Shown: piece after piece, positions 1-35,451 of the stretch | Layout of the letters: each line of letters opens with the position of its first letter | Position numbering within the stretch: position 1 is the stretch's first letter | The notes under the pieces: generated by a model | Databases searched by the model: none | The model's input: only the letters and a program-made list of their open reading frames with translations | Told to the model about the DNA's origin: nothing | Program-made: the position numbers and the translations under genes | Virus record (IMG/VR): IMGVR_UViG_2740892422_000002 | Coordinates: 1 to 35,451 of that record | Source of the DNA: a virus | Lineage: Duplodnaviria > Heunggongvirae > Uroviricota > Caudoviricetes | DNA length: 35,451 nt | Direction: 5' to 3' (one strand)

Positions 1-135
1 ATTGATTTTTCGCGAAACCATTTGATCATATGACAAGATGTGTATCCACCTTAACTTAATGATTTTTACCAAAATCATTAGGGGATTCATCAGCGCGCAG
101 CTCCTTTGAACCATAGCCGACAATCCGGCCTTCAT
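1..135 (-). CDS. mom: mom-like DNA modification protein, N-terminal fragment truncated by the window edge; start codon uncertain (ATG at 133..135 or 88..90)
   Basis: Open frame from ATG 133..135 to position 1 on the minus strand, immediately downstream of com; assignment is by synteny only, protein not recognised by sequence. Confidence 0.4.
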
Positions 136-137
136 AC

Positions 138-323
138 TCAATAACGCAGGGTTTTGTCAGAATGCGTGATTTCTTCTCTTTTCCCACAATACAGCTCCGT
201 GGGATGCTCTTTGGCATTCGATATGACAATGTAACGTTTACAGCGAGGGCATTTAATTTCTATATGCTTAAAACCTCCTTTAAACAGTAATTTATTGCAG
301 TTTTTACAGCGAACAGAGTCCAT
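138..323 (-). CDS. com: Com-like zinc-finger translational activator of mom
   Basis: 61-aa product [61 protein letters not shown] with CxxC...CxxC zinc-finger; closely resembles Mu Com as recalled; AGGGGGAA RBS before ATG at 323. The ORF-track start at 350 is judged an upstream extension. Confidence 0.8.
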
Positions 324-446
324 GATTCCCCCTGTGTAATAACCAGACATGACCGCCCGGAGGGCTGGGGGTATTTAATCACAACCGATGCAAACCGACG
401 ATCGATATGATGTTATCGATCGTCATAAACTATACAAACTGATTAT
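324..446 (-). promoter_or_regulatory. com-mom upstream regulatory region, candidate C-dependent late promoter, with Dam-site palindrome (arms 397..407 and 414..424)
   Basis: Intergenic between the tail-fiber assembly gene stop (447) and com; perfect 11-bp inverted repeat GACGATCGATA/TATCGATCGTC with 6-bp spacer; GATC at 400..403 and 418..421. Confidence 0.5.
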
Positions 447-1022
447 TTAATCACCGACAGTTAACGCTCTCACCTCGTCCAGTATGGACAGCCGGGAAAG
501 CTGCTCCTTCATTTCACGCTGGCGCTGATAAATCTCGTCATTGCGATCGACCTGTGCCTGCGCCATTGCTGTCGCCAGTTCTTCCAGTTCAGACATCGAC
601 AGTTTCACCTGTTGATTATCGGCATCACCCCACGCAAGGGTGGTTCGTGCCGTATCGGATTTCGCCGCCATTACTACCGGATAAAGACGGGCCATTGAGT
701 CGGGGCCAGCATTCCAGGTACGACCGTTCCATTCGAACGTGAACGGCTGCGCTTCCTGTTCTGCACGCCAGGCGTTGATTTGCTGTTTTTTGGCATCTTT
801 TGCCGCTGCGATAAGTTCCGGCGTGACGGTGAACGGGGCGATTTCGCCCCATTTGCCGCTCTGTAACTCTTCCCAGATGCGCTGGCCTGTTGTTGCGGTA
901 TCGTCCTGCATGGCGGTATACGGGACAAATTCCGTTTCACCTTCAAATAGCACCTCGCAGTCAACCGCACCATTTTCGAGATAATGCGCGTATCTGATGC
1001 CCTTTACCGCTCTGATTTTCAT
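447..1022 (-). CDS. tail fiber assembly protein (Tfa-type chaperone) for the long fiber
   Basis: 191-aa ORF immediately downstream of the long tail-fiber gene; size, position and C-terminal region typical of lambda/P2-type fiber assembly chaperones. Confidence 0.65.
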   Translation of the reverse strand: MKIRAVKGIRYAHYLENGAVDCEVLFEGETEFVPYTAMQDDTATTGQRIWEELQSGKWGEIAPFTVTPELIAAAKDAKKQQINAWRAEQEAQPFTFEWNGRTWNAGPDSMARLYPVVMAAKSDTARTTLAWGDADNQQVKLSMSELEELATAMAQAQVDRNDEIYQRQREMKEQLSRLSILDEVRALTVGD

Positions 1023-1036
1023 GTTCTATCTCCTTG

Positions 1037-4000
1037 TTACTCAATGCGCACGAACAAACAGATAAAGCCTCTGTCGCCATACGTTCCACGATAACCTGAC
1101 AGGGCCTGATAACGACCGGGAAAACTGAATGCCCCAGCACCACCCGCCTTTACTGAAGGTGTGGAAACATATGTCCCGGAATTATTAATTGCACAGTCGA
1201 TAGCCACAGGACCAAGTCGCGACCCCGCCACTACATCCCCAAGGCCAATTTTTATTTCCTTATCTCCTGCCGCTGTTCCCTGATAGACCGCGAGAATAAG
1301 AGAGCCAACTGCCGGATATTTGTAATATGAGGACGGGCCGTTGCCCGCCGTCCGGGACAGCAGGAAGGCCAGCGAATCGCCGTCGTAAATGACAGGGCTT
1401 ACTGTTGCATTCCAGTTGTTTCCACTCCAGCGATAAGTCAGGCGATGAATACTGTGCTCACCTTCGTAATACTGGTTAAAACACAGCAGCGTTTTGAATT
1501 TACGCGTTGTGTCCGATTCATCGTTATCAAAGGGCGACCACATCACATCAATGATGCCGTTAAATTTTGTGGTTCCTGCCAGTAGTGTGGAAGAATCCGC
1601 AATACTGACCGCATAACGCCCCGGGGTGACCTCTTTCAGCCACTCAGCAAAATCAGCCTGTCCATCAAATGCCAGTGCATCGGTGCTGGTAAATGCCTGA
1701 CCGAACCCATGCATACCAGACAGTGCCAGCCTGCCCGGTGTACGGTCGCGGATATCGCTCTGGGGTTCCATCGTCGCAGCCGCTTTCAGTTCAAGCTCCG
1801 TGCGCATGGCCTCAGACGTGTCCAGCGCCAGTAATGCGCGGGCTTTTTCTGACAGCTGTGCCAGTAAAACCCGGCCCTCTGCACTGAAATAAGGCAGTGT
1901 GTTTTCTTCCGGTGTTATCTGGCTGACAGCCGTTAACATGTCATTAAGCGGCTGCTTACCTGCCAGTGCATTAGTGACCGTTGTCGCAAAGTTCGGGTCA
2001 TTACCCAGCGCCGCTGCCAGCTCGTTCAGCGTGTCGAGGGCTTCCGGTGATGAGCCAACCAGCGCGGCAAGCAGTTTGCGGACAAACTCCGCATTGGCGA
2101 TTTCATTACCAGCTGCATCATCTGGCGGTGTTGGCGTTGTCGGCGTTCCGGTCAGTGCCGGGCTTTTCAGCGGTGCGCGGGTTTCAATCAGCGCCCGGAG
2201 TGAAGCCTCGTTGACTTTCAGGTTTTCCCAGCCAACCAGATAACCATCTCCGGCATTCCAGTAGCGATTGTAATAAATGTGGCCGTTAATACCGTAAAAA
2301 ATAATGATTTTAGCCACATATGCCGGATTGGGGTTGGTTTGAGGCTCCGGCCAGATAATTTCAACGGTACCATTGAACAGCACGCCCTGTATTACCGCAT
2401 TTGTATCTGCATAAACGGCATAGCGACCGGGTTTTGCCGTTTTTACCCAGCGGAGAAAATCGGTCTCTGTTTTAAACTCGGTTCTGTCGCCGCTGGAAAA
2501 TACTTTCCCGAATCCAAACATGCCGGGAATCGCCAGACGGCCTTCGGTGCGGTCGTAAATATTCTCCTGTGCATCCTTCTGTGCTGCATTGCCAAGTTGT
2601 GGCGTCAGATTCGTCCAGGTGACCGGGGCGGAGATATTATCGCCACGAACGGTCATAAGAATCCGTCCGTCTTTTCCAAAAAACAGAACCAGCTTTGTTG
2701 CTGTCTGGCTGGTTTTGTCGTCCCAGCCATTATCCAGCCAGATAATTTCTGTTATTCCGGTCGTCTCTTCCGTTTGTGTGGAAAAGGTGTAATACCGTCC
2801 CGGGTGCAGGTTATGCGCACTTTTGGCTATGGTCGCCATATCGCGGGCAATAATTGAACTTGCTCCGGCGTCCGTCATTCCGTAACCAAATGCACCTGGT
2901 AGCGCAACACGGCCTTCCGTGCTGTCGTAAAGGTCTGTCTGAATGTCCTTTACCGCCGCGCTTTTCAGCTCAAGCTCCGTGCGCATGGCTTCCACTGTGG
3001 CCTGTGCCAGCAGTGACCGGGCTTTTTCTGACAGCGGAGACAGTGAAGCATTCCCGTCCTGATTAAAGCACAGAAGATTATCTGCCCGTTCTTCCAGATT
3101 ACTGATTGCGGTTAACACGTCACTGAGTGGTTGTTTACCCGCCAGCGCGTTCATGATTGTTGTCGCAAACTCCGGGTCATTGCCCAGCGCCGCTGCCAGC
3201 TCGTTCAGTGTGTCCAGGGCTTCCGGTGACGAGTCAACCAGTGCGGCGAGCAGTTTGCGGACAAATGCCGCGTTCGCGGTTTCCAGACCGACTGCATCGT
3301 CCGGTGGGGTTGGTGTGGTTGGCGTACCCGTGAACGCCGGGCTGTCCAGCGGCGCTTTTGTTTTCGTCTCGTCCATGACGGCTTTGACAGCCTTTGGTGT
3401 GGCGGCCAGTTCTTCGCTGTCGTTGTCTGTATCACTACAGAGTTGCACCAGACCTTTTTGCGTCGTGCTGGCGTTGGTTCCTTTCAGGTCATCGACTATC
3501 CGTTGCGCCTCGTCCCTGTGCTGTTTCGCGTTCTGCTCGCTTTTTGCTGCCGCTTCGGCGCTGGCTTTTGCCTCGCCGGTCAGCGTTGCAGCATCAGCAA
3601 GTTTATCGACCGCTTTCTGGACTATCGCGTCAGCATCCTTGACAGCCTGTTCTGCGCGGGCGGCATTCTGGTTTGTTTCAGAGGCCAGCTCTTCAGCTTT
3701 CTGCACATTACCCGCAATTTCTTCTGCATCCTGCTGTATTTCCCCGGCGAGCGCTTCTGTATCCTGGCGGGCCTGTTCAGCAGCGGTGGCGTGCTCTCCT
3801 GCTTTTTCTGCGCTTTGCTGCGCCTGTTGCGCCAGCTCTTCGAATTTCTTCAGGGCTTCCGGGCGCAGGTCAATATCGGTTGCGCCCAGAAAATCATTCA
3901 GCGAACCGTCTGTCGAATCTTCATAAACGCGAATGACACCGATTTCTGAAAGGCGCTGTGTGCTTTGTGTCAGGCGAACGCTGTACACACCCGGCAGAAC

Positions 4001-4150
4001 GGGGAAGTCGTACTCCCCGCTCTGTGTGGTGACGTGGCTGAAAACACCTTTCAGAATCCCTGCGCGGTTGTGCAGGGAGGTCAGTGTAATGGTTGCGCCG
4101 CCAAGCGGTTCTCCCGTGGGCGTTTTAATCACACCTTTAAGCTGCGGCAT
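1037..4150 (-). CDS. long tail fiber protein (P2 gpH / lambda Stf-like, mosaic, with internal module duplication)
   Basis: 1037-aa ORF; contains twice the conserved fiber motif ...SPA(F/L)TGTPTTPTPPDDA...FVRKLLAALV.SSPEALDTLNELAAALGNDP.FATT..NALAGKQP; N-terminus resembles side-tail-fiber N-domains. Confidence 0.85.
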   Translation of the reverse strand: MPQLKGVIKTPTGEPLGGATITLTSLHNRAGILKGVFSHVTTQSGEYDFPVLPGVYSVRLTQSTQRLSEIGVIRVYEDSTDGSLNDFLGATDIDLRPEALKKFEELAQQAQQSAEKAGEHATAAEQARQDTEALAGEIQQDAEEIAGNVQKAEELASETNQNAARAEQAVKDADAIVQKAVDKLADAATLTGEAKASAEAAAKSEQNAKQHRDEAQRIVDDLKGTNASTTQKGLVQLCSDTDNDSEELAATPKAVKAVMDETKTKAPLDSPAFTGTPTTPTPPDDAVGLETANAAFVRKLLAALVDSSPEALDTLNELAAALGNDPEFATTIMNALAGKQPLSDVLTAISNLEERADNLLCFNQDGNASLSPLSEKARSLLAQATVEAMRTELELKSAAVKDIQTDLYDSTEGRVALPGAFGYGMTDAGASSIIARDMATIAKSAHNLHPGRYYTFSTQTEETTGITEIIWLDNGWDDKTSQTATKLVLFFGKDGRILMTVRGDNISAPVTWTNLTPQLGNAAQKDAQENIYDRTEGRLAIPGMFGFGKVFSSGDRTEFKTETDFLRWVKTAKPGRYAVYADTNAVIQGVLFNGTVEIIWPEPQTNPNPAYVAKIIIFYGINGHIYYNRYWNAGDGYLVGWENLKVNEASLRALIETRAPLKSPALTGTPTTPTPPDDAAGNEIANAEFVRKLLAALVGSSPEALDTLNELAAALGNDPNFATTVTNALAGKQPLNDMLTAVSQITPEENTLPYFSAEGRVLLAQLSEKARALLALDTSEAMRTELELKAAATMEPQSDIRDRTPGRLALSGMHGFGQAFTSTDALAFDGQADFAEWLKEVTPGRYAVSIADSSTLLAGTTKFNGIIDVMWSPFDNDESDTTRKFKTLLCFNQYYEGEHSIHRLTYRWSGNNWNATVSPVIYDGDSLAFLLSRTAGNGPSSYYKYPAVGSLILAVYQGTAAGDKEIKIGLGDVVAGSRLGPVAIDCAINNSGTYVSTPSVKAGGAGAFSFPGRYQALSGYRGTYGDRGFICLFVRIE
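1780..2200. repeat. intragenic direct repeat copy 1 (~0.4 kb, roughly 80-85% identical to 2958..3375 by eye)
   Basis: Near-identical strings, e.g. TTGTCGCAAA.TTCGGGTCATT.CCCAGCGCCGCTGCCAGCTCGTTCAG and CAAGCTCCGTGCGCATGGC, in both copies; boundaries approximate. Confidence 0.7.
2958..3375. repeat. intragenic direct repeat copy 2 (partner of 1780..2200)
   Basis: Same as copy 1; offset about 1.18 kb, inside the long tail-fiber gene. Confidence 0.7.
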
Positions 4151-4667
4151 CGGGACGCTCCGGCCAGTTGATGGAATTAAAGGAGGCTTCGTCAGTAACG
4201 GTGCTTAAATCCAGTGCCTTTACCGCTTTGATATATGCCATCCACTGCGTAAGACGGGCTTTATCATCGTCGCTGATGGTGCCCAGCTCCAGCTCGGTTT
4301 TCCAGTCGGAGGTGATGTCCTTCGCTTCATTCAGCAGGCGCTGACGTTGTTTTTCTGCCAGTTGCGAATAATCAACAGGAACAGGCAGCACTTCGCCATC
4401 TTTGTAATACCAGCTGACTTCAATGCCAAAACCTTCCGGCAGTTCATCCACTTCCACAATGGTGAAGCCAGCCGGATAAAGACGGGACACGTCTTCCGCC
4501 ATTGAATAAATCACGCCGGTTTCCGGGTGAATACACAATTTGTATTTCTTCGTGAATTTATCCAGTGATTCATAAAAATCTTGTCCGTCTTCACTGCGGA
4601 AATACTGAATGTTTTCACCGTAAGGCATTTCTTCCGGGTAATAACGCGTGACGTTTCTGAGTTCCAT
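4137..4667 (-). CDS. tail fiber assembly protein (Tfa-type chaperone) for the upstream 259-aa fiber
   Basis: 176-aa product from ATG at 4667 preceded by TAAGGAG RBS; follows the 259-aa fiber gene. The ORF-track start at 4703 is judged an extension. Confidence 0.65.
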   Translation of the reverse strand: MELRNVTRYYPEEMPYGENIQYFRSEDGQDFYESLDKFTKKYKLCIHPETGVIYSMAEDVSRLYPAGFTIVEVDELPEGFGIEVSWYYKDGEVLPVPVDYSQLAEKQRQRLLNEAKDITSDWKTELELGTISDDDKARLTQWMAYIKAVKALDLSTVTDEASFNSINWPERPDAAA

Positions 4668-4681
4668 TATTTTCTCCTTAA

Positions 4682-5461
4682 TTAACCAGAGATAGTGCGC
4701 CATGCGCCACTAATATAAATTTGCACAGGTTTATACTTGATGAACTCCATTTTTTCGCCGCCATCAACAAAGGTGACCACGCAGCCTGTCGGAGCCTGAT
4801 ATCCACCCTGAACCTGCGCCCCCAACTGAACATTCTGAACGTACCGGGCATCGGCTGTTGACTGACTCATTCCTGCAGGAATCGTGATATCGCTGGTGCC
4901 ATCAAATGGCACATTGTTAATCCTGCGGGCCGTCTGAAGTCGGGTTGCCGTTCCGGCGTTGCCGCTGATGTTGCTGATGGTGATATCCGAAGACAGGGCC
5001 ATGCCGTTGACCCTGCGGGTATTCGGTACAGCACTATTAGCTTTATTTACCGTTTCACGTAATGAAAGTGCTTCGATAATTTCACCGGCTGTGTTTTTCC
5101 CGAGAATACTGCGCACAAAAGCACTGAGCGGCGTTAATGCCATTGTGTCTTCGCCCGTAAAATACGGGAACGTATTATTCTGACCGGTTAATCCGGCAAT
5201 AGCTCCGGCTGAACCACTGTTCGTAATAAACAGTTTTTTCAGCGCCGTCATAATCTGGTTGGTGGTATTTTTATCCGGTTTGATATTTGCCTGCCGGAGA
5301 ATTTCCAGCAGTTCAGACTGAATAATATTAAACCAGTCCGGCCCCGGATAAGTGGGCGGAATACCATTCCCGCCTTCGGTGAAATAAAGCGTTGTTTTGC
5401 TTAATTCAGCCGCGACAGGTGGCATTACCGGCACCCCCGTCGGATTATCCACATGAAACAT
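4682..5461 (-). CDS. tail fiber protein (shorter fiber, S-like position)
   Basis: 259-aa ORF between the baseplate cluster and a Tfa gene; internal segment ...AGLTGQNNTFPYFTGEDTMALTPLSAFVRSIL... resembles tail-fiber shaft motifs. Confidence 0.55.
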   Translation of the reverse strand: MFHVDNPTGVPVMPPVAAELSKTTLYFTEGGNGIPPTYPGPDWFNIIQSELLEILRQANIKPDKNTTNQIMTALKKLFITNSGSAGAIAGLTGQNNTFPYFTGEDTMALTPLSAFVRSILGKNTAGEIIEALSLRETVNKANSAVPNTRRVNGMALSSDITISNISGNAGTATRLQTARRINNVPFDGTSDITIPAGMSQSTADARYVQNVQLGAQVQGGYQAPTGCVVTFVDGGEKMEFIKYKPVQIYISGAWRTISG

Positions 5462-5464
5462 AAA

Positions 5465-6049
5465 TTATTCTCCGGTGTAATAATATTCATATTCCGTGCC
5501 CGCCAGCCGGTAATGCTTCAGCAGGCATTCCAGCTCGCGGGTCCGTTCGCTGATTAATGGCGTCATGACGTCATCAATACAGGTAAACCGCCCGGCATCT
5601 TTGTCCGGGACTTCCACTTTCAGCAGCCAGCGATACCGCGCCGGATGTAGCGGGTACATGCAGTCACGCAGGCAGTGGTGCGGCAGAACGGCCGTCACCT
5701 TAATAGTGAATCCCAGCGCCGCCGCAGCGGCTTCAATCTGCCAGGTGGCCAGCCCGCCTTTGCGGCGGTATTTCTCCACCACGGCCCGGCGGCGGGCTTC
5801 CGTTGTGGTGGCGGCAATTCCGCATTCCGGCAGCGCCAGATATTGCTCCCACTCCGGCAGCAACTGGAGCGTGGTTTCCGGTCGCATCTCCACATGCAGA
5901 CGCGAGGCGTCGTATTCAACGCGGGTTAAACGCTCTGCAAGCGCCCTTAAAAAACGGTTTAAATCCGCGTCGTTATCACGCGGCCATGCCTTACCCCGTG
6001 GCATGACCTGTTGCAGTGCGGTCAGCCATTCCGTCACGCTGTGAGCCAT
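5465..6049 (-). CDS. tail/baseplate protein (Mu gp48-like, DUF2313-type)
   Basis: 194-aa ORF directly after the baseplate-J gene; position and size match the Mu gp48 family. Confidence 0.55.
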   Translation of the reverse strand: MAHSVTEWLTALQQVMPRGKAWPRDNDADLNRFLRALAERLTRVEYDASRLHVEMRPETTLQLLPEWEQYLALPECGIAATTTEARRRAVVEKYRRKGGLATWQIEAAAAALGFTIKVTAVLPHHCLRDCMYPLHPARYRWLLKVEVPDKDAGRFTCIDDVMTPLISERTRELECLLKHYRLAGTEYEYYYTGE

Positions 6050-7110
6050 GTCACCTCCCCGATGGTGATAAGCTCATCCACATCACTGGTAGTGTCTTCC
6101 CCGATGTTCAGGAAGTAGTCCGCGATGCCGGACGTCATACCGATGGCCGTGCGCAGCGAGGACACCGGCAACATCTGACCGGGGGCCAGCGTTTTCTGTA
6201 ATGCGGTCAGGTTTGCCCGGACGGCGTTCCTGTTCGCCTGGCTGTCCGGTGTCAGACGGATGGACAGGTCGACTTTCTTCAGCCTGACCTGTACCGGCCA
6301 GACCTCGATGCCGCCCGGTTTTCCCACCATCACGCCGGTGGCCGGGTGTTTGTGGCAGAACAGATACTGCTCCATTGTCTTCAGGTCTTCGCGGGTCGGC
6401 ACAATGTCTTCACGGTCATCATAAAGCCATGCCAGCCCGACCGTGCCGGGGCCGTGCCACGCATCCCACGCCCACGCACGGCTGACGCCCGGCACTTCAC
6501 GCGCCCATATCACGTAGTCATGCAGCGCACCGCCCACCGGGGGATTGCGGCGCACATACAGCAGACGGTCCAGCAGCTCTGCGATGGATTCGATGTCTGC
6601 GCCACCGGTGATGCCACTTTCAGTCACCGCGCCTGTGCTGCCCGTTCCGGGTAGCGGGGATAACAGGGTCAGCACGGCACCGGCAGCAAGATTGCCTGCC
6701 ACACCGGCTTCTTCAGCCTGCACGATGACGGTGACCTCGCCGTCCTGTACCTCGCCGGATGTGAGTACCTGATACACCTGATTCGTGTCGGACTGCATCC
6801 GGGTTTCTGCCGGAATGGGGGACTGACTGGTGAAGGTCACCGGCCCGCTGGCAAAGGTTGCCTGCTTGCGGATAACCCCTTCATACGTTGCTGTTTTGAT
6901 AATGGTTTCATCATCAGACGTAGTGGACGGAATTATCTGGTCCTTGATCCAGCTCTGATGGTCGTATAAATCCCGGACCTGACTGCTGAACGACACGTTC
7001 AGCGCCTGCTCAACACTGACAGGCGGCAGCTTTTGCAGGCCGAGTTCATACGCAATATCTTTTTCGCCGTCGGCAATCAGTTTGCCCAGCGTGGGGATTT
7101 CATACGGCAT
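6034..7110 (-). CDS. baseplate J-like protein (Mu gp47-like)
   Basis: 358-aa ORF in the baseplate cluster; size and synteny. Confidence 0.75.
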   Translation of the reverse strand: MPYEIPTLGKLIADGEKDIAYELGLQKLPPVSVEQALNVSFSSQVRDLYDHQSWIKDQIIPSTTSDDETIIKTATYEGVIRKQATFASGPVTFTSQSPIPAETRMQSDTNQVYQVLTSGEVQDGEVTVIVQAEEAGVAGNLAAGAVLTLLSPLPGTGSTGAVTESGITGGADIESIAELLDRLLYVRRNPPVGGALHDYVIWAREVPGVSRAWAWDAWHGPGTVGLAWLYDDREDIVPTREDLKTMEQYLFCHKHPATGVMVGKPGGIEVWPVQVRLKKVDLSIRLTPDSQANRNAVRANLTALQKTLAPGQMLPVSSLRTAIGMTSGIADYFLNIGEDTTSDVDELITIGEVTWLTA

Positions 7111-7552
7111 TAATGGTGGCCTCCCATCGGCGGGTGATTTCGATTGTGAGCGTGGTTTTGTCCGGGCGGGTTAACACCACCTGAAAGGCAATACGGTCAG
7201 GGACGATGATTCTGGCCGCGACGGTGGCGTTACGGGCGTAACCGGCCCGCAGCAGCGGTTGCATGGACAGTCGCGCGTAATCCTCCACACGCAGGCGGAC
7301 ATCTTCCGTCAGTTTTTCGCGTTCAAGCAGCCACAGGCGGGAACCCCACGAAAAATCGCTGTACGTGTCGCCCGGCCAGCCGCGCGGGTCGCCGGAACCA
7401 TCTGGAATGACATCATCGTCATCAGCACGGGCATCAGTGAAAAGGCAGATAAGAACCTGAGTGACCAGCCCCTCATCCAGTGAGAGGCCGTTATGGGTGA
7501 CGGTGATGTCACCCCGTGAGAGAGTATTATTCCAGCGGATTCCGGTCGTCAT
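7100..7552 (-). CDS. baseplate wedge protein (Mu gp46 / T4 gp25-like)
   Basis: 150-aa ORF between spike-like and J-like baseplate genes; synteny. Confidence 0.6.
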   Translation of the reverse strand: MTTGIRWNNTLSRGDITVTHNGLSLDEGLVTQVLICLFTDARADDDDVIPDGSGDPRGWPGDTYSDFSWGSRLWLLEREKLTEDVRLRVEDYARLSMQPLLRAGYARNATVAARIIVPDRIAFQVVLTRPDKTTLTIEITRRWEATINAV

Positions 7553-8085
7553 ATGGGCGGTGATGTCTTCTCATTGTCGCCGTCCTTATGAATGTGTTTG
7601 ATGAAAGATTTACCGTTGATTGTGGCATCTGCAGTAAATTCACAGGGACCGACGAATTTCATTTGTTTACCGATAATATTCAGCAATTCGTCGGCGGTGA
7701 GATTTACCGTTTTCCCTGAAACGTTTAATTGTTCTCCTGTGATTTCAATAATTCCGCCTTTCTTTAACGTGATATGCGATTTACCGTCCTGGTGATACAG
7801 CCGGACATCACCGGGGGACAGGCCTTTCGGGCGACATCGCTTGTCCTCCACCGCGATGGCAACCAGCCCGTCACGCCGTCCGCCCACGGCCAGCACGATG
7901 GCTTCAGAACCTTCCGGCGGAACGGAAGTAAACCCGTAGTTCTGGAAGCGTTCCACGTCGTCGTCGGTGGCATCAGCCAGCGTCTGGATTTGCAGGTTCT
8001 GCCGCTCCAGACTGTCAGACACCATGCGCACAACGGCACGGTCAACCAGCAGCCGCAGACGGCGGGCAATTGCGTTTAATCCCAT
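7549..8085 (-). CDS. baseplate assembly/spike protein (Mu gp45-like)
   Basis: 178-aa ORF downstream of the gpD/P-like gene; synteny. Confidence 0.6.
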   Translation of the reverse strand: MGLNAIARRLRLLVDRAVVRMVSDSLERQNLQIQTLADATDDDVERFQNYGFTSVPPEGSEAIVLAVGGRRDGLVAIAVEDKRCRPKGLSPGDVRLYHQDGKSHITLKKGGIIEITGEQLNVSGKTVNLTADELLNIIGKQMKFVGPCEFTADATINGKSFIKHIHKDGDNEKTSPPI

Positions 8086-9146
8086 GTGGCCACCGCCTTT
8101 GTTTTCTTCGTCTTCGCTTTCATTTCCGGCATATCCAGTGATTCAGGCGGAACCAGCGCCAGAACCGTCATCCGCCCCTGTGCGCCATCCGTCCAGGTCA
8201 CCCCGGATATCAGCCAGGTGGTTTTCAGGTTCTGAATGCTGTCGTCGATATCGACAAGGCGGTTGGTCTGCCACAGCGGGCCGCTGTCGCCCTGTTCGCG
8301 CCAGCCTGCCACCGTGATTTCCGTCGTGCGGGATTCCCCCAGCATCCGGGCTTTGTACCATTCCCCGCGAATGCTGGCCCCGCCCACGGTCAGGCTGTCT
8401 TCATTGACCAGAATGCGCGGGCGGTAACGGTTAATTTCCGGGTCTTCGGTGATGTACTGGCGACCACCCACCATCGAGGCAGGCTGGCTGTCCCACAGTT
8501 TGCCACCGGCACTGGTGGTGCCCTTGATGATGTACTGGCTGTTACGCTCCCGCCAGCTGAAGCGCCCACGGGCAGCGAGGATATTTTTCCCCAGCACCAG
8601 TGACACACCCGCGCGAACGGAAGAGGCGCGGGTGATAATCAGGTTACCTGCGCCGTCAGACGTCAGCAGAACGCCGCGCTGTTTTGCCAGCCGGTCGAGC
8701 AGTTCAAAGCCCGTTTCACCCTGTTCCAGAACGACGGACGCAAACGCCTCCCCGGTCGGGGTTTCCGTGATGACGGTTATCCCGAACGGGCGGCAGACAT
8801 CAGCCGCCACCTGTTCAAGCCGCACGCCTTTCCATTTCCCGGATGAATGCACCACAGAGCAGTCCACCAGGTCACCGGTTTTGTCGCGCCCCATGACGCG
8901 GATCTCCACGTTATCTGCGTCATAGCTGGGGATAAAATCATCAATATACCCCGTCAGCACGGTATCCGCGCCCAGCCTGACCGTGCAGGGTTGCCCCTCA
9001 CGAATCACGCGCGGTGCCGCCGCTGACCAGCGGGTTGTCACACTGAGATCAAACTCACCGGCAATCGCCTTCAGGGAACGGCTGATGGACATTTCCGTCC
9101 AGCCTTCCCACAGTTTGCCGTCAACGGTAAGAATCACGGATTCCAT
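8076..9146 (-). CDS. baseplate hub/tail protein (Mu P, P2 gpD-like)
   Basis: 356-aa ORF following the DNA-circularisation N gene; size and order typical of Mu P. Confidence 0.7.
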   Translation of the reverse strand: MESVILTVDGKLWEGWTEMSISRSLKAIAGEFDLSVTTRWSAAAPRVIREGQPCTVRLGADTVLTGYIDDFIPSYDADNVEIRVMGRDKTGDLVDCSVVHSSGKWKGVRLEQVAADVCRPFGITVITETPTGEAFASVVLEQGETGFELLDRLAKQRGVLLTSDGAGNLIITRASSVRAGVSLVLGKNILAARGRFSWRERNSQYIIKGTTSAGGKLWDSQPASMVGGRQYITEDPEINRYRPRILVNEDSLTVGGASIRGEWYKARMLGESRTTEITVAGWREQGDSGPLWQTNRLVDIDDSIQNLKTTWLISGVTWTDGAQGRMTVLALVPPESLDMPEMKAKTKKTKAVATWD

Positions 9147-34456: not shown

Positions 34457-34636
34457 GCAACTGCTTTTCGTATGTTTAATGAAACAAAAGCCATTTCTAA
34501 CAATCTTTCGCGTTTCAATGCTTAACGGCTAAAATTTGTTCTACAGGCTTGCAAGCCCCACCAAATCTAATCCCGTCAAATCCCGAATAATCCAATATCC
34601 TCCCGGTTTTTTTCGTACTTCTCGTGAATCAATACA
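34457..34636 (-). other. Mu left-end (attL) region with terminal MuA-binding sites; terminus at 34636
   Basis: Minus strand from 34636 reads TGTATTGATTCACGAGAAGTACGAAAAAAACCGGGAGGATATTGGATTATTCGGGATTTGACGGGATTAGATTTGG..., matching the Mu left end with a few substitutions. Confidence 0.85.
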
Positions 34637-35451
34637 CCGGTGATGAGCAGGTTGAGGTGCTGAAGGGCATCAGCCTCGATATTTATGCGGGTGAGATGGT
34701 CGCGATTGTTGGCGCTTCGGGTTCCGGTAAATCGACCCTGATGAATATTCTCGGCTGTCTGGATAAGGCCACCAGCGGCACCTATCGCGTCGCCGGTCAG
34801 GATGTTGCCACGCTGGACGCCGATGCGCTGGCGCAACTGCGCCGCGAGCATTTCGGCTTTATTTTCCAGCGTTACCATTTGCTTTCGCATTTAACCGCCG
34901 AGCAGAACGTTGAAGTACCCGCCGTCTATGCTGGTCTTGAGCGGAAACAGCGACTGCTTCGTGCCCAGGAGTTGCTGCAACGGCTGGGGCTGGAAGACCG
35001 TACAGAGTATTATCCGGCACAGCTTTCGGGTGGTCAGCAACAGCGCGTCAGCATCGCGCGGGCATTGATGAACGGTGGTCAGGTAATTCTTGCCGATGAA
35101 CCAACCGGCGCACTGGACAGCCATTCTGGCGAAGAGGTGATGGCGATCCTGCATCAGCTGCGCGATCGTGGGCATACGGTGATTATCGTCACCCACGATC
35201 CGCAGGTCGCTGCTCAGGCCGAGCGGGTGATCGAAATTCGCGACGGCGAAATTGTGCGCAATCCTCCCGCCATTGAAAAAGTGAATGTTACTGGCGGGAC
35301 GGAACCTGTTGTCAACACGGTGTCTGGCTGGCGGCAGTTTGTCAGCGGTTTTAACGAGGCGCTGACGATGGCATGGCGGGCGCTGGCAGCGAATAAAATG
35401 CGTACTTTACTGACCATGCTGGGGATTATTATCGGTATTGCGTCGGTGGTT
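34637..35451 (+). pseudogene. macB: macB (macrolide ABC transporter ATP-binding/permease), 3' portion only; gene interrupted by the prophage and running off the window end
   Basis: In-frame translation from 34639: [56 protein letters not shown]...[15 protein letters not shown]...[11 protein letters not shown]..., i.e. the ABC ATPase domain of E. coli MacB beginning around codon 18. Confidence 0.85.

Follow-up and report, generated by a model that had tools for sequence, protein, structure and literature searches.

Two co-oriented tail fibre and chaperone pairs, and no G inversion switch, in a Mu-like prophage of Escherichia coli

Inversion of the G segment of phage Mu is a textbook case of host-range bet hedging. 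A Mu-type prophage with a differently organized tail-fibre region raises the question of whether its host range is still switchable, and of how its fibres are used. We analyzed a 35,451-nt stretch of DNA (the window), which is a Mu-type transposable prophage of E. coli. It carries the Mu gene set (MuA DDE transposase, MuB, Mu-type repressor, portal, sheath, gp44-gp48 baseplate and com), and the Mu left-end motif ...GTGAATCAATACA terminates at position 34636. The genes under study follow each other on the minus strand in the order gp47, gp48, a 259-aa fibre (fibre 1), a Tfa/U chaperone (Tfa1), a 1037-aa fibre (fibre 2), a DUF4376 chaperone (Tfa2) and com (Table 1). The open reading frames of the fibre region are real genes, with Pfam, PHROG and PDB matches far above chance, and a sister prophage carries identical genes annotated in RefSeq. 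The coordinates given in the first-pass annotation were all correct. The Tfa1 open reading frame spans 4137..4703, and its RefSeq start at 4667 has a strong Shine-Dalgarno (SD) motif, taaggagaaaataATG.

The genes on either side are of Mu type. Upstream, the sister-prophage counterpart of the gp47 homologue is annotated in RefSeq as 'baseplate J/gp47 family', and the gp48 homologue is 34% identical to Mu gp48. Downstream, the com region shares 82% nucleotide identity with Mu com/mom, and the RefSeq version of com encodes 61 aa (138..323). The sister prophage has an intact mom of 241 aa, whose start maps to window position 217; homology to all sister prophages ends at position 90.

Table 1. Features of the fibre region and its surroundings (window coordinates)
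Feature	Position	Strand	Evidence
Mu gp47 homologue, baseplate wedge, 358 aa	6034..7110	-	Pfam Baseplate_J, E 9e-60
Mu gp48 homologue, baseplate wedge, 194 aa	5465..6049	-	Pfam Phage_Mu_Gp48, E 6e-32
Fibre 1, shortened Mu S-type tail fibre, 259 aa	4682..5461	-	PDB, BLASTP and PHROG matches
Position homologous to Mu gixL, without partner site	5054..5079	-	16/26 bases match gix
Tfa1, Mu U-type tail fibre assembly chaperone, 176 aa	4137..4667	-	Pfam Caudo_TAP, E 8e-22
Fibre 2, Stf-type long fibre, 1037 aa	1037..4150	-	Pfam PF08400 and Phage_fiber_2; PHROG
Fibre 2, predicted collar-type anchoring N-domain, aa 1-95	3866..4150	-	phmmer to solved PDB domains
Horizontally exchanged distal block, comprising all of fibre 2 beyond about aa 160 and most of Tfa2	505..3670	-	Nucleotide identity
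Fibre 2, internal duplication	1923..2176; second copy 3102-3355	-	80% nucleotide identity; spacing 1179 nt = 393 aa
Tfa2, DUF4376 tail fibre chaperone, 191 aa	447..1022	-	Pfam DUF4376, E 2e-17, residues 73-177
com, Mu Com zinc-ribbon translational activator of mom	138..350	-	Pfam Zn_ribbon_Com, E 3e-7
mom 5' remnant, about 42 codons, cut by IS10	90..217	-	Sister-prophage comparison

All components of the inversion switch are missing. Mu Gin had no homologue in six frames of the whole window (tblastn, best E 0.8), and the open reading frames between gp48 and com are all accounted for, with no serine recombinase among them. Nor did the window contain any gix/hix-like site above chance: the best match was 16-17 out of 26 bases, and several unrelated positions reached the same 16/26. 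Within positions 1..7000 we found no long inverted repeats, the longest being 22 nt at 77% identity, while the same search applied to two gin-bearing controls returned repeats of 77 nt at 94% and 152 nt at 76% in a Citrobacter locus, and of 181 nt at 76% in a Mu-like phage (L004). Oppositely oriented sets of fibre ends and chaperones sharing a common N-terminal exon are absent as well, as all four genes run along the minus strand and each fibre is encoded with a full N-terminus of its own. At the position that corresponds by homology to Mu gixL, the sequence encodes ...IIEALSLRE..., aligned with FIQNLGLQE of Mu S. Since the match of this position to gix is at chance level for this window, it is at most a degenerate relic, by position alone. 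The first-pass annotation had claimed that the locus lacks gin, a G segment and flanking inverted repeats, and that host range would be fixed rather than switchable; all of this held. Because the pair of recombination sites is absent, neither a cis- nor a trans-acting invertase can switch the fibres, and specificity is genetically fixed.

Fibre 1 opens with a baseplate-docking N-domain (residues 1-81), continues in a short shaft that includes a P1 S-like segment, and ends in a tip (residues ~200-259). The N-domain matches residues 1-81 of the Mu tail fiber protein S (PDB 5yvq/9ki1, E 6e-25) and the tip aligns with Mu S at about residues 434-502 (434-501 in the PDB alignment, 437-502 by BLASTP). 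BLASTP against Mu S gave E 9e-27 and, for the tip, E 4e-8, and the protein falls into PHROG 1833, 'tail fiber protein' (E 3e-82). These matches to the N-terminus of Mu gp49 and to the tip of Mu S bear out the earlier assignment of the 259-aa product as a fibre and not a baseplate protein. The arrangement is also that of a Mu S-type fibre, with the gp48 gene immediately upstream of the gp49-like docking domain and an S/S'/P2 H-type tip followed by a chaperone. In Mu, the gp49 N-terminus docks on residues 133-155 of gp48, the fibre-docking loop (PMC11915804). Tfa1 begins 14 nt downstream of fibre 1, belongs to PHROG 136 (E 8e-58) and is matched by Mu U over its full length (tblastn, E 6e-19).

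Fibre 2 is of a different kind. Its residues 4-130 match PF08400 (phage_tail_N) with 91.7 bits against a cutoff of 26.6, and the protein also matches Phage_fiber_2 (E 3e-15) and PHROG 2636 (E 2e-255). Among proteins of known structure, the N-terminus is closest to the XM1 collar spike gp40 (PDB 7kjk, phmmer E 5e-11, residues 3-187); it also matches the Ur-lambda Stf N-domain (PDB 9e7m, E 9e-10, residues 3-90), and both alignments span the whole anchoring domain. In Ur-lambda, 12 copies of StfN form a collar at the gpV/gpM junction and Stf raises the adsorption rate (PMC12617516), while gp40 of XM1 binds the neck of a contractile-tailed phage (PMC10457771). Judged by domain homology, the two fibres are thus not equivalent, as the long one has a lambda-Stf/XM1-collar-spike type of anchoring domain, and because of this anchor fibre 2 probably does not use the gp48 docking loop. 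The N-domain is 55% identical to that of a Mu-like prophage of C. braakii and 37-39% identical to those of phiP27, E. coli W, P13-6 and lambda. The distal block has been exchanged horizontally: its nucleotide identity is about 90% with fibres from E. coli myovirus prophages that are unrelated, and 89% with the lambdoid phage Rac-SA53. Besides an internal duplication, fibre 2 contains two 'APLxSPAxTGTPTTPTPPDDA...ALAGKQPL' collar segments and three 'DxYDxTxGRxAxPGxFGxG' knob modules. Tfa2 starts 14 nt past the fibre 2 stop, is assigned to PHROG 1141 (E 3e-86) and shares 86% nucleotide identity with L57 of phiP27. Experimental support for DUF4376 fibre chaperones comes from Alteromonas phages V22/A5 and the Campylobacter CJIE1 H-fibre system only.

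The four genes are tightly packed or overlapping, with the start codon of fibre 2 lying 14 nt inside the end of Tfa1. Each has an SD motif 5' of it, namely GGAG about 10 nt from the ATG of fibre 1 and 9-12 nt from that of fibre 2, and strong SD motifs for both chaperones. No terminator-like site was found between the fibre and chaperone genes on the minus (coding) strand. Because of this packing, the separate SD motifs and the uninterrupted intergenic sequence, the four genes should be made together late in infection, and the display of both fibres at once is plausible from the gene arrangement.

Among 5,426 complete E. coli genomes, the baseplate clade of this prophage occurs in 49 and the fibre 2 N-domain variant in 51, with overlapping strain lists. 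The other four members whose surroundings we read are all Mu-like prophages, and their insertion sites vary: flhA (the ETEC1732 sister), mdtO, and sites adjoining yehQ and ynfD. The clade-specific N-domain of fibre 2 is co-inherited with the baseplate: essentially all clade members retain it, including those that have lost the distal part. Such losses do occur. A large set of human isolates, nearly identical to each other, has fibre 2 cut to about 113 aa; in XJ34 it is pseudogenised, and in SA53-3 it has been struck by an IS3 element. Given these lesions, fibre 2 is dispensable for the persistence of the prophage, and it may be decaying.

We consider it rather likely that the locus is a fixed, non-invertible two-fibre module whose fibres are made together, with fibre 1 on gp48 and fibre 2 elsewhere on the virion, offering two specificities at once. 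The late tail operon would then end in a host-recognition module with two different fibres. The conserved first 81 residues of fibre 1 would dock on the wedge loop of gp48, as in Mu, and the adjacent U-type chaperone would fold its C-terminal tip. The Ig-like PF08400 domain of fibre 2 places it in the class that collars the tail in Ur-lambda or the neck in the myophage XM1, so that it would most likely attach away from the gp48 loop, without competing with fibre 1, and the DUF4376 chaperone would fold its distal part. Virions would carry two receptor-binding specificities at the same time, as opposed to the alternating G(+) and G(-) states of Mu. A division of labour may be envisaged, in which the long fibre touches the host first and the short one, on the baseplate, sets off contraction.

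The main challenge to this two-fibre reading is that fibre 2 and its DUF4376 chaperone could be passenger DNA, a relic or moron-like cargo that is never assembled, with adsorption carried out by fibre 1 and Tfa1 alone. The lesions described above would fit, as would the existence of gin-less relatives with S and U only. Moreover, Tfa2 and the distal part of fibre 2 share about 90% nucleotide identity with genes of unrelated prophages, which points to recent exchange. However, the 1037-codon frame is intact, has its own SD motif and overlaps Tfa1, and the clade-specific anchor survives distal loss. The N-domain has a counterpart in a Citrobacter Mu-like prophage, phiP27 keeps the same layout, and the exchange junction just past the anchor, at about residue 160, is the classic pattern of a functional fibre that swaps its specificity. 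On balance, we regard the passenger explanation as fairly unlikely. Far less credible is the idea that host range is still switchable, either by a host Pin-family invertase acting in trans or by recombination between the internal repeats of fibre 2. Pin-family invertases are common in E. coli strains, and the repeats, 1179 nt apart, are 80% identical. Nonetheless, any invertase would face co-oriented genes and no inverted pair of gix/hix-like sites and, because the repeats are direct, recombination between them would remove a module and not toggle two alternative states. We therefore hold this alternative to be extremely improbable.

A subtler question is where fibre 2 is mounted. The block formed by distal fibre 1, Tfa1, the whole of fibre 2 and the DUF4376 gene travels as a unit and has been joined to at least three baseplate-attachment domains that are unrelated to each other. 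Distal fibre 1 and Tfa1 are 77-98% identical among phiP27, E. coli W and P13-6, and the fibre 2 N-domains are near-identical, whereas the baseplate-binding fibre-1 N-termini are of three unrelated types. Since an identical phiP27-type N-domain sits behind three different fibre-1 N-termini and tail types, a docking site specific to one tail type fits poorly. Fibre 2 could then be displayed on its cassette partner, either distal fibre 1 or a retained Tfa1, as a branched fibre and not as a collar on tail or neck. In these gin-less cassettes a Caudo_TAP chaperone always directly precedes fibre 2, and Mu Tfa is reported, according to a citation in PMC7882524, to remain bound to the fibre. Against this, the two homologues of the N-domain with known structures attach to rings of the tail or neck and not to fibres, and gin separates the fibre 2 gene from S and U in C. 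braakii. In E. coli W and P13-6 the sheath and antirepressor genes are partial and the prophages look degraded, so that their cassettes may not be functional. A branched fibre thus appears very unlikely. Because the cassette changes baseplate domains with its anchor unchanged, the partner and a generic neck collar may both be considered as docking sites. To the broader possibility that fibre 2 is a real second adhesin whose anchor is not tail-type-specific and docks on fibre 1, on the retained Tfa1 or on such a collar, we would give a small chance. If true, it would represent an undescribed mounting of a lambda-type side fibre on Mu/P2-type tails, and constitutive dual-receptor recognition would be an alternative to inversion-based bet hedging.

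This clade shows that close relatives of Mu dispense with G inversion and may carry two adhesins at once instead. This bears on host-range prediction for transposable prophages in ETEC and STEC strains. As the anchor and the distal parts are clearly modular, the junction at about residue 160 of fibre 2 is also relevant to fibre engineering. Of wider interest is the docking place of a lambda-Stf-type collar domain on a contractile tail. Apart from that question, the locus is an instance of ordinary mosaicism among tail fibres, as RefSeq annotation and phiP27 already show.

Two known systems are informative about the anchor. Ur-lambda Stf (9E7M/9MGH) has a homologous N-domain, followed by an Ala/Glu/Gln-rich coiled coil, a Phage_fiber_2 repeat and a downstream gene for a dedicated chaperone. 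Its collar, however, surrounds a non-contractile tube that has no sheath; in a myophage this surface is hidden. Because the tail of the prophage is contractile and Mu-type, the docking surface must differ from that of lambda. The chaperones differ too, since lambda Tfa is of the Caudo_TAP family and that of fibre 2 is DUF4376. The Vibrio myophage XM1 offers a precedent for such an anchor on a simple contractile-tailed phage, as gp40 (7KJK) likewise combines the N-domain with a coiled coil. There, gp40 attaches to gp4 and gp5, the proteins of head completion and tail termination, whereas the neck of the prophage is Mu gp36-like, and sequence comparison detected no similarity between the neck proteins of the window and those of XM1. 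The XM1 docking mode is therefore not transferable by homology, and neck attachment of fibre 2 is a hypothesis.

As for the layout, the prophage shares with Mu the gp44-gp48 baseplate, the S-type fibre N-terminus and the U-type chaperone, followed by com-mom. It differs in lacking gin, the gix pair and the inverted second set, in the shortening of S from 504 to 259 aa, and in the Stf-type fibre and DUF4376 chaperone inserted between U and com. The double cassette recurs in the Stx2e phage phiP27 (L54-L57) and two further myovirus prophages of E. coli. In phiP27 (L52-L57) the order is the same, with gp47-like and gp48-like genes, fibre L54, Caudo_TAP L55, PF08400 fibre L56 and DUF4376 L57, and L56 shares the N-domain (38% aa identity) and the C-terminal module with fibre 2. 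Unlike the prophage, phiP27 is of the integrating type and has attR at its right end, its cassette is not followed by com-mom, the N-terminus of its fibre 1 is unrelated to Mu S, and L56 has 490 aa with one knob module instead of three. The closest N-domain outside E. coli is that of the C. braakii ATCC 51113 Mu-like prophage (L018, the Citrobacter control above), where an S-type fibre precedes and a DUF4376 gene follows. In contrast to our prophage, it has Gin, its segment is flanked by 77-152-nt inverted repeats, and its PF08400 fibre, which lies with the DUF4376 gene directly downstream of gin and the invertible segment, is short (320 aa) and collagen-like. As this genome carries both the second fibre and the inversion switch, the two are independent modules. 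The first-pass annotation had described two fibre pairs instead of gin: gin and the G segment are indeed absent, but the second pair is an independent add-on and not a replacement. Since about 1% of complete E. coli genomes, as well as phiP27, already have the layout, it is not unusual, and the locus is an ordinary mosaic variant of known systems rather than a new type.

Pfam matches in the window include the Mu-type genes MuA (DDE_2, E 3e-136), MuB, the Mu-type repressor, the Mu portal and protease/scaffold, together with tail genes for the sheath, tape measure, DNA-circularisation protein and the baseplate proteins gp44, gp47 and gp48. This gene content identifies the window as a transposable prophage of the Mu type. 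Downstream of gp48, the ORFs that we found agree exactly with those listed in the first-pass annotation, namely two fibre genes, each followed by its chaperone gene, and com (see table). E. coli ETEC1732 harbours a sister prophage in flhA that is 100% identical over window 90..6000; its annotated genes are the same, and an intact mom comes after them. The annotation of this sister marks gp44, the baseplate-hub gene, as frameshifted (L001, the ETEC1732 locus, 10987-11911), while the window has an intact 356-aa ORF at 8076-9146.

Genes of the fibre region, in order along the minus strand
Feature	Position	Strand	Basis
gp48 homologue	5465..6049	-	Pfam
Fibre 1, 259-aa ORF	4682..5461	-	Downstream of gp48; Mu S homology
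Tfa1, Caudo_TAP chaperone	4137..4667 (start as in RefSeq)	-	Full-length Mu U homologue
Fibre 2, 1037-aa ORF	1037..4150	-	PF08400
Tfa2, DUF4376 protein	447..1022	-	DUF4376 family
com	138..350	-	ORF listing

In Mu, the equivalent interval contains S, U, U', S' and gin. We searched the whole window with Mu Gin by six-frame tblastn and obtained a best E of only 0.8, while the same run recovered Mu S (E 2e-23) and Mu U (E 6e-19); this excludes a gin relic or pseudogene. A scan for gix/hix sites allowing mismatches returned at best 16-17 of 26 positions at several unrelated places, which is the level expected by chance, and the position equivalent to Mu gixL (5054-5079) matches gix at 16 of 26 positions with no partner site. 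The longest inverted repeat within window 1..7000 measures 22 nt at 77% identity. Applied to gin-bearing relatives, the same tool detected inverted repeats of 77 nt (94%) and 152 nt (76%) in a Citrobacter prophage and a pair of 181 nt (76%) in the Mu-like phage inside a Stx1 phage. The homology, site and repeat searches and their positive controls therefore bear out the first-pass claim that the region lacks gin, an invertible segment and inverted repeats. Since the site pair is absent, a Pin-type invertase supplied in trans by the host could not switch the fibre region either. FluMu and other Mu-like prophages reportedly also lack gin.

Fibre 1 resembles Mu S at both ends. Its residues 1-81 align with the same residue numbers in the solved Mu fibre (PDB 5yvq/9ki1, E 6e-25) and its residues 204-258 with the Mu S tip, residues 437-502 (E 4e-8), while the alignment at residues 128-166 spans the stretch that encodes gixL in Mu. 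About 240 residues of the Mu shaft are absent. On these alignments, fibre 1 is a shortened Mu S. The homology at both ends rules out a baseplate protein, and the ORF stands as the fibre that it had been called. In Mu, the N-terminus of the fibre S (gp49) anchors on the fibre-docking loop of gp48, residues 133-155 (PMC11915804); in the window, the gp48 homologue lies immediately upstream of fibre 1, and the gene after fibre 1, Tfa1, is homologous to Mu U over its full length.

Fibre 2 begins with a PF08400 domain (91.7 bits, cutoff 26.6), followed by a coiled-coil-like stretch rich in Ala, Glu and Gln and then by a Phage_fiber_2 repeat. Its N-terminus matches the N-domain of Ur-lambda Stf (9E7M, E 9e-10), twelve copies of which form a collar where the gpV tube meets the gpM ring and bear four trimeric side fibres (PMC12617516). 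It also matches the "collar spike" gp40 of the Vibrio myophage XM1 (7KJK, E 5e-11), whose N-domain attaches to gp4 and gp5, neck proteins of this contractile-tailed phage (PMC10457771). Judged from these matches, the anchor of fibre 2 is of a different class from that of fibre 1, and since it is of another class, fibre 2 probably does not compete with fibre 1 for the gp48 loop. Docking on the neck through homologues of XM1 gp4 and gp5 is unsupported: we found no similarity between the neck proteins of the window and those of XM1, and they are Mu-like, one of them matching Mu gp36 only (E 3e-10 to 9khx).

The distal part of fibre 2 has a modular structure, with two collar segments and three knob modules, compared with one knob module in its phiP27 counterpart (gene L56). 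A direct repeat of 254 nt with 80% identity (1923-2176 and 3102-3355, spaced by 1179 nt) reflects tandem duplication of a module within the gene. Homologues range from 320 aa (Citrobacter braakii, collagen-like) through 490 aa (phiP27) to about 1045 aa. As for Tfa2, downstream of fibre 2, members of its DUF4376 family have been shown to be fibre chaperones in systems from Alteromonas and Campylobacter.

The genes of the fibre cassette are separated by gaps of 3, 14 and 14 nt, with a 14-nt overlap between Tfa1 and fibre 2, and a Shine-Dalgarno motif of the GGAG type precedes each of them. On the coding strand, we found a single terminator-like site, which is weak and lies within fibre 2. The natural reading is that the cassette would be co-transcribed from the late tail operon.

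Among E. coli relatives, phiP27 shows the same order as the window (gp47-like, gp48-like, fibre L54, Tfa L55, PF08400 fibre L56, L57). The prophages of E. coli W and O141:H4 P13-6 have the order fibre, Tfa, PF08400 fibre and DUF4376 gene behind other myovirus baseplates, and their fibres share about 90% nucleotide identity with fibre 2 from around residue 160 on. Fibre 2 is not a plain lambdoid gene, because its nearest distal homologues occur in these myovirus prophages besides the lambdoid Rac-SA53, and because the Mu-like clade has an anchor variant specific to it. This variant occurs in 51 of the 5426 complete E. coli genomes and the gp47-gp48 clade of the window in 49, with overlapping strain lists. 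All four of the other clade members whose surroundings we read are Mu-like prophages without gin, at different insertion sites. The overlapping lists and the Mu-like context thus indicate that the anchor was co-inherited with the baseplate, while the distal fibre was exchanged. In a sub-clade made up of E. coli RIVM_C019217 and some 20 nearly identical isolates from humans (L007 8699-10755), gp48/YmfQ is enlarged to about 325 aa, and an additional 352-aa hypothetical protein lies between gp48 and the S-type fibre. What persists of fibre 2 there is its N-terminal end, about 113 aa long and encoded about 270 nt upstream of com.

Overall, we consider it reasonably probable that the fibre region of the window is a fixed dual-fibre adsorption module. 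The short S-type fibre 1 would be seated on gp48, the long Stf-type fibre 2 would be mounted by its collar-type domain, and each would be folded with its own chaperone. The main rival, which we regard as unlikely, is that fibre 2 is passenger DNA and is not assembled on the virion. Some clade members carry a decayed fibre 2, shortened to about 113 aa, pseudogenised or disrupted by IS3, and the gene is therefore dispensable for prophage persistence.

A cassette shared between tail types bears on where a mounted fibre 2 would dock. phiP27 (5637-7539 of its locus), E. coli W (11341-13795) and P13-6 (11338-13591) have in common a near-identical distal fibre 1, Tfa1 (77-98% identity) and the fibre-2 N-domain, while their fibre-1 N-termini are of three unrelated types. 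The cassette as a unit, its fibre-2 anchor included, thus changes tail type by a swap of the fibre-1 attachment domain alone. A tail-specific dock for fibre 2 fits poorly with this mobility; either a generic collar or a cassette-encoded partner could serve as the dock instead. Alternatively, some of these three prophages could be defective.

The first-pass annotation had also proposed that two fibre pairs stand in place of the switch. For the second pair, this does not hold in the four loci whose ORFs we read, out of 20 that we gathered by alignment of the S N-terminus. A Kluyvera locus has an invertase besides S, Tfa and an inverted S' part. A Yersinia locus contains only S and U, as does an Enterobacteriaceae locus, in which mom comes next. 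The order in Citrobacter braakii ATCC 51113 is S, inverted U' and S'v, Gin, a PF08400 fibre and a DUF4376 gene; the N-domain of this fibre shares 55% identity with the window anchor. Since relatives show all combinations (both, either or neither), gin and the second fibre are independent modules.

In C. braakii (L018 10001-13900) and in the Mu-like phage inside Stx1_JNE122137 (L004 6947-9533), the invertible segment seems to contain a single chaperone gene, which is oriented against the full-length S that is expressed at present and so leaves the in-frame S variant with no co-oriented chaperone directly downstream. After gin, the latter phage has a 680-aa ORF and, in place of Mu com-mom, a cytosine-methyltransferase-like ORF (GGTPCQAFS motif, by eye; coordinates listed for this locus, 9633-11675 and 13058-14110). 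A similar methyltransferase-like ORF occurs in C. braakii (16141-17292).

At the ends of the window, positions 1-89 are the terminal end of IS10/Tn10 (minus strand, ctgatgaatcccctaatgattttggtaaaaatcatt...) and match a phage CL707 record at 100% identity. When window 1-6000 was the query, the best match reached 99% or more in 1639 E. coli records, most likely because of this piece. The mom remnant (90-217) retains about 42 codons before the IS10 cut, while sister prophages have an intact 241-aa mom. The 96-nt gap from Tfa2 to com (351-446) holds a GATC-rich near-palindrome, cgatcgatatgatgttatcgatcg, at about 399-422, reminiscent of the region under Dam/OxyR control that lies upstream of Mu Pmom. 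The Mu-type left-end motif CTTCTCGTGAATCAATACA (34618-34636, ending at 34636) has two mismatches to Mu attL, and the 815 nt beyond it (34637-35451) look by eye like part of a MacB-like ABC-transporter gene of the host; the insertion site therefore differs from that of the copies in flhA, yehQ, ynfD and mdtO.

Our literature search (PF08400; dual fibres in Mu-like or SfV/phiP27 phages; FluMu and gin) found no paper on this arrangement. Public records already contain both Gin-less prophages of the Mu-like type and the double-fibre cassette, and the only point of wider interest is where an Stf-type anchor docks on a contractile tail.
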